Virus record (IMG/VR): IMGVR_UViG_2563366928_000004
Location: 1-9,117 of that record
DNA length: 9,117 nt
Strand: one strand, 5' to 3'
Source of the DNA: a virus
Taxonomy: Duplodnaviria; Heunggongvirae; Uroviricota; Caudoviricetes
Both the position numbers and the translations under genes were made by a program. This document shows, one piece after another, positions 8,601-9,117 of this stretch. Under the pieces are notes generated by a model that saw only the letters and a list, made by a program, of their open reading frames with translations, made no database searches and was not told the origin of the DNA. Numbering within the stretch: position 1 is the first letter of the stretch; every line of letters begins with the position of its first letter.

Positions 8601-8924
8601 TCATCCGTTCTGGCTGACTAAATCCTGTACTTCCCGAACCGTCTGCTCAAAACGTTCAGTCTCCAGCTCAACGCCAATTGCACGACGCCCGAGCGCCAGT
8701 GCCGCTTTCACTGTCGAACCCGACCCCATGAAAAAATCTGCAATCAGGTCACCCGGACGACTGCTAGCGCTGATTATCTGCTGCAGCATTTCTGCCGGTT
8801 TTTCGCACGGATGTTTCCCGGGATAGAACTGCACCGGTTTATGCGTCCACACATCGGTATACGGCACCTGCACCGTCACGCCAAAATACCGCCGCAGATG
8901 TTTATATTCACTCAGCAGCTCCGC
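8601..8924 (-). pseudogene. 3' fragment (107 codons) of a phage DNA methyltransferase (beta-class N6-adenine/N4-cytosine family), truncated at its 5' side by IS1
   Basis: The frame is open from the IS1 boundary at 8924 down to the TGA at 8601, with no plausible start. It contains the C-terminal AdoMet motif FFMGSGST and the upstream HPCEKPAEMLQQII block typical of this family. The ORF-track start at 8879 is a GTG. Confidence 0.7.
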
Positions 8925-9117
8925 GGTAATGACTCCAACTTATTGATAGTGTTTTATGTTCAGATAATGCCCGATGACTTTGTCATGCAGCTCCACCGAT
9001 TTTGAGAACGACAGCGACTTCCGTCCCAGCCGTGCCAGGTGCTGCCTCAGATTCAGGTTATGCCGCTCAATTCGCTGCGTATATCGCTTGCTGATTACGT
9101 GCAGCTTTCCCTTCAGG
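8925..9117 (-). mobile_element. IS1: IS1 insertion sequence, right end (inverted repeat begins ggtaatgactccaac at 8925); the element continues beyond the window
   Basis: The plus strand from 8925 reads the reverse complement of the IS1 terminus (…CACTATCAATAAGTTGGAGTCATTACC), and the minus strand encodes the InsB C-terminus. Confidence 0.9.
8940..9116 (-). CDS. insB: IS1 transposase InsB (InsAB'), C-terminal 58 codons plus stop; 5' part outside the window
   Basis: Minus-strand translation [58 protein letters not shown] matches the IS1 InsB C-terminus from memory. Confidence 0.9.

Follow-up and report, generated by a model that had tools for sequence, protein, structure and literature searches.

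The window, by which we mean the whole 9,117-nt stretch of prophage DNA that was analyzed, closes with three elements on the minus strand: a tRNA cluster, the 3′ end of a DNA methyltransferase gene, and the right end of an IS1 element. The methylase remnant (8601-8924) was assigned by Pfam and protein alignment to codons 246-352, plus the stop codon, of a 352-aa beta-class N6_N4 DNA methyltransferase. Its frame is open from 8924 to 8604 with the stop codon at 8603-8601, and the translation is AELLSEYKHLRRYFGVTVQVPYTDVWTHKPVQFYPGKHPCEKPAEMLQQIISASSRPGDLIADFFMGSGSTVKAALALGRRAIGVELETERFEQTVREVQDLVSQNG, starting AELLSEYKHLRRYFG...FMGSGST...SQNG. In Pfam, the remnant aligns with positions 136-220 of the 221-position N6_N4_Mtase profile (PF01555; E = 2.5e-24), and 106 of 106 residues are identical to residues 247-352 of the full-length, 352-aa protein WP_000024311.1. 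From 8925 to 9117 runs the right end of IS1, made up of the right terminal repeat (IRR) and the 3′ end of insB′. In our reading of 8100-9117 the terminal repeat GGTAATGACTCC begins at 8925, the canonical IS1 IRR being GGTAATGACTCCAAC... from that base, and 8925-9117 is 100% identical to the complete 768-bp IS1A-type element of strains AF10 and AF14. Translated from the minus strand, the InsB′ C terminus is ...IKHYQ*; its frame terminates at the TAA at 8942-8940, five codons ahead of the joint, and the transposase is read toward the methylase remnant and the tRNAs.

Beyond the methylase stop codon lies the phage tRNA cluster, also on the minus strand. Its first gene, at 8485-8560, has the anticodon CAT and is called Met by ARAGORN and tRNA-Ile by RefSeq; we take it to be an ileZ-type tRNA that decodes Ile after lysidine modification, the discrepancy then being one of annotation only. 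It is followed by tRNA-Arg (TCG) at 8401-8477 and tRNA-Arg (TCT) at 8311-8387. Between the methylase stop and the first tRNA there is a sigma-70-like promoter match, TTGAAG-17-TATTAT (8570-8598, minus strand; a consensus match only), and directly after the last tRNA the motif scan found a terminator-like GC-rich hairpin with a T-run (8279-8296, minus strand). These matches suggest that the cluster may form its own transcription unit, from the promoter-like site at 8598-8570 to the hairpin at 8296-8279; this is a suggestion and nothing firmer, because promoter and terminator counts are at chance level (for promoters, one site found and 1.3 expected by chance). Just downstream of the cluster, between the tRNAs and iraM, the Rfam sRNA family STnc100 is matched over its full length (8044-8233, minus strand; 131 bits versus a gathering score of 47), and a terminator-like hairpin at 8074-8053 falls within the 3′ end of this match. 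The gene iraM (an anti-adaptor by its RefSeq name, with a PmrD-like Pfam hit) is a moron on the opposite strand, situated between tRNAs and esterase gene (7683-8018, plus strand); the Pfam scan of this open reading frame gave no match at E ≤ 0.01.

Where exactly does the methylase end and IS1 begin? The nine bases adjoining IS1 at 8916-8924 are cagctccgc (CAGCTCCGC), one half of a flank pair that is identical in five assemblies. The possibility that the terminal "gc" consists of foreign bases was ruled out, as these bases are present in other methylase alleles: STEC435 reads TCCGC/ATAC (the slash marks the position of the joint), and the O104:H4 protein has Ala at this codon. Because the "gc" is genuine methylase sequence, the joint lies exactly at 8924/8925, between codons 245 and 246. 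Full-length methylase alleles run 735 nt beyond this point, as ...TCCGC/ATACTGCCGG... or, in another reading, ...TCCGC/ATACTGCC.... When the methylase frame was extended into IS1, no ATG, GTG or TTG was found between the joint and the IS1 stop codon, and the first in-frame start-like codon is a GTG at 8879, which would open a 92-aa ORF without the catalytic DPPY.

What is left of the enzyme is its C-terminal end. The AdoMet motif I (FxGxG) expected of such a C terminus is retained in the remnant as DFFMGSGST, and the catalytic DPPY (motif IV), which lies at residues 35-38 of the full-length allele, is absent together with the target recognition domain (TRD). RefSeq labels the remnant a pseudogene "missing N-terminus". 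Judged from its sequence, this methylase copy cannot be functional; it is the remnant of a gene and not a functional member of its family. No methylase activity is expected because only the C-terminal 30% survives, and no methylation can come from this copy. The sequence-only reading of this DNA had placed the right end of IS1 at 8925 beside cagctccgc, had the methylase frame enter IS1 without a start codon, and had called the phage methylase disrupted. Each of these statements agrees with what we find: the IRR GGTAATGACTCC starts at that base with 100% IS1 sequence downstream of it, the nine bases are as given, the extended frame contains no start, and 107 of 352 codons are left. As to family, the remnant and the 349-aa methylase encoded by the potC prophage in O104:H4 share 95% identity, and the full-length allele is 93% identical to the enzyme of phage 1720a-02, which has been listed as very similar to the M.EcoGII family (PMC5778455). 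Through the O104:H4 and 1720a-02 enzymes the remnant can thus be linked, indirectly, to the prophage-borne M.EcoGI/GII-like methylases, a family for which non-specific adenine methylation has been reported (PMC5778455).

The window corresponds, with 100% identity, to nucleotides 1-9117 of scaffold KE136712.1 (GCA_000407865.1), and it stops at 9117 because the scaffold has a gap of 225 N inside IS1. Past the gap, KE136712.1 carries the left (IRL) end of IS1, ...GGCAGCATCACC, joined to ACCAGCCAGTACTGAC..., a fragment of an exonuclease gene; in this assembly the link across IS1 rests on scaffolding. Looking up the 92-aa remnant ORF in public assemblies led to three NCBI genomes. The full 768-bp IS1 with identical flanks, TATTCACTCAGCAGCTCCGC on one side and ACCAGCCAGTACTGACAATA on the other, is present in AF10, AF14, UFZP01000007 and UGAB01000002; the first two are UK blood isolates with complete chromosomes, the last two are NCTC assemblies, and all four are gap-free here. 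Both ends of the element are seen in these four assemblies, with terminal repeats GGTAATGACTCC and GGTGATGCTGCC and a length of 768 bp (12676-13443 in the sister-genome locus L001). It contains insA and insB′ with a programmed frameshift (Pfam PF03811, PF12759 and PF03400; DDE_Tnp_IS1 and Zn_ribbon_InsA), and RefSeq labels it "IS1A family transposase, programmed frameshift".

The flank beyond IS1 consists of exonuclease codons 109-812 (704 of 812 aa, RecE-like), followed by xis, int and potC. In Pfam, the exonuclease fragment covers only profile positions 110-203 of Exonuc_VIII, in addition to an Rv2179c-like domain, and RefSeq records it as a pseudogene "missing N-terminus". The 5′ part of the methylase was not found beyond IS1 in KE136712.1 or in the four gap-free assemblies. 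There is likewise no target-site duplication around IS1, because the two flanks, CAGCTCCGC and ACCAGCCAG, agree at only 2 of 9 positions. Over the 9117 nt of the window, AF10 and AF14 differ from it by six substitutions and one 2-nt indel, at 115/118, 5033/5037, 5368-5369, 5470 and 5764. Four of the substitutions fall into two close pairs and two stand alone, and the indel changes by 2 nt the length of a run of A upstream of the region of the esterase stop; the clustering of the differences suggests small recombination patches or sequencing error in place of clock-like divergence.

Two intact sister prophages, those of O104:H4 2009EL-2071 and ATCC 25922, occupy the same potB/potC site and share int, xis and exonuclease, and comparison with them indicates how much is missing. 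Relative to O104:H4 2009EL-2071, the AF10 element matches up to 5334 in its left arm and from 20001 onward in its right arm, which leaves 14,666 bp absent. Relative to ATCC 25922, whose prophage is without the tRNA/methylase module, the arms are 97.9% and 98.1% identical and 12,953 bp lie between them. The unrelated prophage SLK172, whose full-length methylase is the closest one, spans about 14.4 kb between the corresponding positions. Going by how these relatives are annotated, the missing segment holds methylase codons 1-245 and a 198-nt ORF; the Q-like antiterminator, RusA, DUF968, hokD and nin-region ORFs; replication genes and divergent cro/cI-like HTH genes; and RelBE, dicB and exonuclease codons 1-108. 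Both the size and the content of the deletion are read off mosaic relatives and not off the true ancestor. Methylase and exonuclease are both cut short at the 5′ end, and their orientation to each other is the original one. An inversion in place of a deletion was rejected because both arms are oriented as in the intact relatives O104:H4 and ATCC 25922. In short, an intact IS without a duplication sits between flanks that are collinear but separated in relatives, as is expected of an IS-bounded deletion.

We consider it highly probable that a lambda-like potB/potC prophage has undergone an IS1-bounded deletion of about 13-15 kb and that 8601-9117 forms the left joint of this deletion. The structure, its two joints, the missing duplication and the identity of the lost genes are read directly from the sequence and from the sister prophages. 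One intact 768-bp IS1 would stand in place of about 13-15 kb of lost prophage DNA, adjoining codon 246 of the late-region methylase on one side and codon 108/109 of the early-left exonuclease on the other; a single deletion spanning two divergently transcribed arms would cost both genes their 5′ parts and leave their orientation as it was. Five assemblies, drawn from at least three collections, contain both joints, and the IRR joint is seen also in four human-gut metagenome contigs. This recurrence argues that the event is real and vertically inherited in its lineage and not an artefact of assembly. When 5,426 complete E. coli genomes were searched by megablast for both joints, only AF10 and AF14 were returned, so among complete RefSeq E. 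coli genomes the joint is confined to these two; in the viral contigs searched it is absent. AF10 and AF14 each have two further methylase-homologous loci. Three other proximities of IS1 and recE (H103-H105) proved to be two separate pieces at other positions and not the joint. One of the gut-metagenome contigs, k141_352086 (ENA ERZ27242573; 3849 bp), has the identical IS1/methylase joint and the tRNAs with a different downstream region, in which there is no iraM and the esterase is a 617-aa allele; the contig reflects either recombination with another lambdoid prophage 3′ of the tRNAs or a chimeric assembly.

The sequence-only reading had proposed a simple IS1 insertion into the methylase, which would put the 5′ two-thirds of the gene and a 9-bp duplication just past the window. 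The window by itself is compatible with such an insertion, since the methylase frame goes straight into the end of IS1, but everything beyond it speaks otherwise: the scaffold that contains the window and four contiguous assemblies all have exonuclease as the other flank, there is no duplication, and about 13-15 kb are missing, where an insertion should give an 8-9 bp duplication and a gene half on either side. Moreover, no complete E. coli genome has IS1 here with the 5′ half beyond it, the joint being present only in AF10 and AF14. We regard a simple insertion as having next to no chance of being correct. Of what that reading had looked for beyond 9117, the remainder of IS1 is there, and the 5′ part of the methylase and the duplication are not. 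It had also allowed that the gene might naturally start at the junction, with neither an upstream half nor a duplication; those two absences are indeed what is seen, but the gene does not start there, given that the alleles continue.

Could the methylase instead have been a natural mosaic remnant before IS1 arrived, or could the joint be an artefact of assembly at a repeat? Many lambdoid prophages have, without any IS, a 297-nt 3′ stub of the methylase that is 99.5% identical to window positions 8601-8897 and is fused directly 3′ of a different antiterminator Q gene (for example, locus L005, 20352-20648, and locus L010, 1014-1292); no more than 27 nt separate the mosaic boundary of the stub from the IS1 joint. 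The existence of such stubs directly downstream of an antiterminator Q gene, and the gap inside IS1 in the window's own assembly, lend this explanation some substance. Against it, the methylase homology goes 27 nt past 8897 and ends at the first base of IS1, and on this ground the identification of the remnant with the common stub was ruled out. The far flank is also exonuclease and not a Q region, both joints are reproduced in four assemblies that are gap-free around IS1, and the IRR joint is independently reproduced in the four gut-metagenome contigs. A prior mosaic remnant or an artefact is, in our view, very improbable.

How might an IS1-bounded deletion of this kind have arisen? In classical IS1 genetics, an intact IS without a duplication is explained by adjacent deletion or by recombination between direct IS copies. 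In the first route, IS1 would insert at one of the two sites, and intramolecular replicative transposition into the other site would then yield the classical "adjacent deletion", which would keep IS1 whole to its last base and leave no target duplication. In the second, two IS1 copies in direct repeat, one in each gene, would undergo RecA-dependent homologous recombination, with loss of the interval and of one IS1 and with the same end product. That second route predicts exactly the structure seen, one intact IS1 with unrelated flanks, and the lineage offers ample material for it: the chromosomes of AF10 (NZ_OZ546911.1) and AF14 (NZ_OZ546925.1) each have at least 39-40 IS1-matching places versus an E. 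coli median of 10-11. IS1 is expanded in this lineage, and both routes are plausible because the lineage is so rich in IS1. Adjacent deletions and IS-IS recombination are, furthermore, the usual causes of missing target duplications, the latter a frequent one (PMC11708052). Recombination nevertheless demands that IS1 inserted twice, independently and in the same orientation, within about 15 kb, and no genome or contig was found with either single insertion or with both, although this absence of intermediates weighs little because most of the collections searched sample the lineage thinly. We therefore hold recombination between two IS1 copies to be a real possibility that falls short of an even chance, and adjacent deletion to be the most likely route, because one prior insertion suffices.

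An ancestor with a simple insertion would carry IS1 and its duplication at one or the other end point. The junctions predicted for such ancestral insertions are GGCAGCATCACC+CAGCTCCGC+ATACTGCC and GCAGGAGAA+ACCAGCCAG+GGTAATGACTCC, and the patterns scanned were the IS1 IRL followed by 7-10 nt and ATACTGCCGGTT, and CCGTGCAGGAGAA followed by 7-10 nt and the IS1 IRR. Neither ancestor turned up among the 5,426 complete E. coli genomes, nor did the viral, metagenome and species-representative contigs yield one. Because no single-insertion ancestor was found, we infer both the order of events and the transposase-dependent mechanism of the adjacent deletion.

What remains is a substantial element. In AF10 it extends from potB to potC over about 37 kb, with a lambda-like head, tail and lysis set that is almost complete and with a few pseudogenes; int/xis, the lysis and virion genes, and the cargo (three tRNAs, iraM and a NanS-p-type esterase) are kept. 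The prophage sits inside the potABCD operon (locus L019, 5221-6490; locus L001, 16977-17938), and since both potB and potC are annotated as full-length, potAB is separated from potCD by about 37 kb. Elsewhere in the window, the 296-aa ORF at 3649-4539 (minus strand) begins with about 100 residues of DUF1327/YdfR and continues with about 190 residues without a Pfam match. RefSeq calls only its first 336 nt, as a YdfR pseudogene "missing C-terminus"; elsewhere YdfR is about 114 aa long and directly abuts the lysozyme gene, and the arrangement at 3649-4539 is the same in ATCC 25922 and O104:H4.

Because control, replication and late-activator genes are deleted, the prophage can be regarded as grounded: a roughly 50-kb lambdoid prophage would have become a non-inducible remnant of about 37 kb. 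Induction with mitomycin C is expected to fail because the repressor, the replication genes and the late-gene activator are all missing. The earlier suggestion that IS1 marks the prophage as possibly decaying or cryptic was well founded, in that the element is defective, with immunity, replication and the Q block lost. Less fortunate was the accompanying idea that IS1 may affect read-through from pR′ into the tRNAs and the downstream cargo. By analogy with lambdoid phages, the promoter pR′ is expected just downstream of the Q-like gene, inside the lost interval, and the idea has no basis because, in the comparison with the sister prophages, the Q-like gene is gone together with the stretch that separates it from the methylase. 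Any expression of the tRNAs and the cargo must be pR′-independent. Weak read-through from IS1 itself into the tRNAs is possible, because the transposase frame is co-directional with them and the promoter/terminator scan found no terminator-like site in the methylase stub.

The consequences are mostly practical, and no biological principle is at stake. IS-mediated prophage decay is textbook knowledge; an IS1-bounded prophage deletion is a known kind of event and an ordinary route of such decay, and RefSeq already annotates all three parts of this one (the methylase pseudogene, IS1 and the exonuclease pseudogene). The locus should be read as a deletion joint and not as a single-gene knock-out, and short-read contigs that end in an IS invite a "simple insertion" reading. 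Prophage-calling tools, for their part, may score the 37-kb element as intact because the integrase and the full virion module are present.

Is the deletion more than neutral decay? We consider it rather unlikely that it was a selected "grounding" event. One step would have removed host-killing functions (induction, replication, Q-dependent lysis, hokD, relE and dicB) and would have kept int/xis, the virion and lysis module, and the cargo (rare-codon tRNAs, iraM, the NanS-p-type esterase and STnc100), and the IS1 insAB′ transcript would be directed into the methylase stub and the tRNAs. The occurrence of the element in several collections and in gut metagenomes is compatible with selection without demonstrating it. 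If the deletion was selected, the element could be passed on stably as a cargo island, and its structural genes could form a reservoir for rescue by co-resident lambdoid phages through recombination.

The elements of this locus have close counterparts in known systems. The methylase shares with the M.EcoGI/M.EcoGII family (PMC5778455) its niche between a Q-like gene and the tRNA cluster of lambdoid prophages, its length class of 349-352 aa, and its order of motifs (N-terminal DPPY, TRD, C-terminal FxGxG); it differs in that only the C-terminal 30% is present here. The joint resembles those left by classical IS1 adjacent deletion or IS-IS recombination (PMC11708052), with the IS intact to its terminal bases at the deletion joint, flanks that lie 13-15 kb apart in relatives, and no target-site duplication. 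No difference in mechanism was seen; what is particular here is only where the deletion ends, at methylase codon 245/246 and at exonuclease codon 108/109. Finally, the prophage as a whole invites comparison with IS-decayed lambdoid prophages, such as the "defective prophage pool" of O157 Sakai (Asadulghani et al. 2009, PMC2669165) and the Stx prophage of S. dysenteriae 1 (PMC7819885). There, too, IS-associated loss of regulation and replication leads to a non-inducible prophage, and cargo and structural genes persist and are inherited vertically. Unlike those prophages, the element described here carries no stx, and a single IS1 replaces the entire block from immunity to Q in a prophage whose virion module is almost complete.
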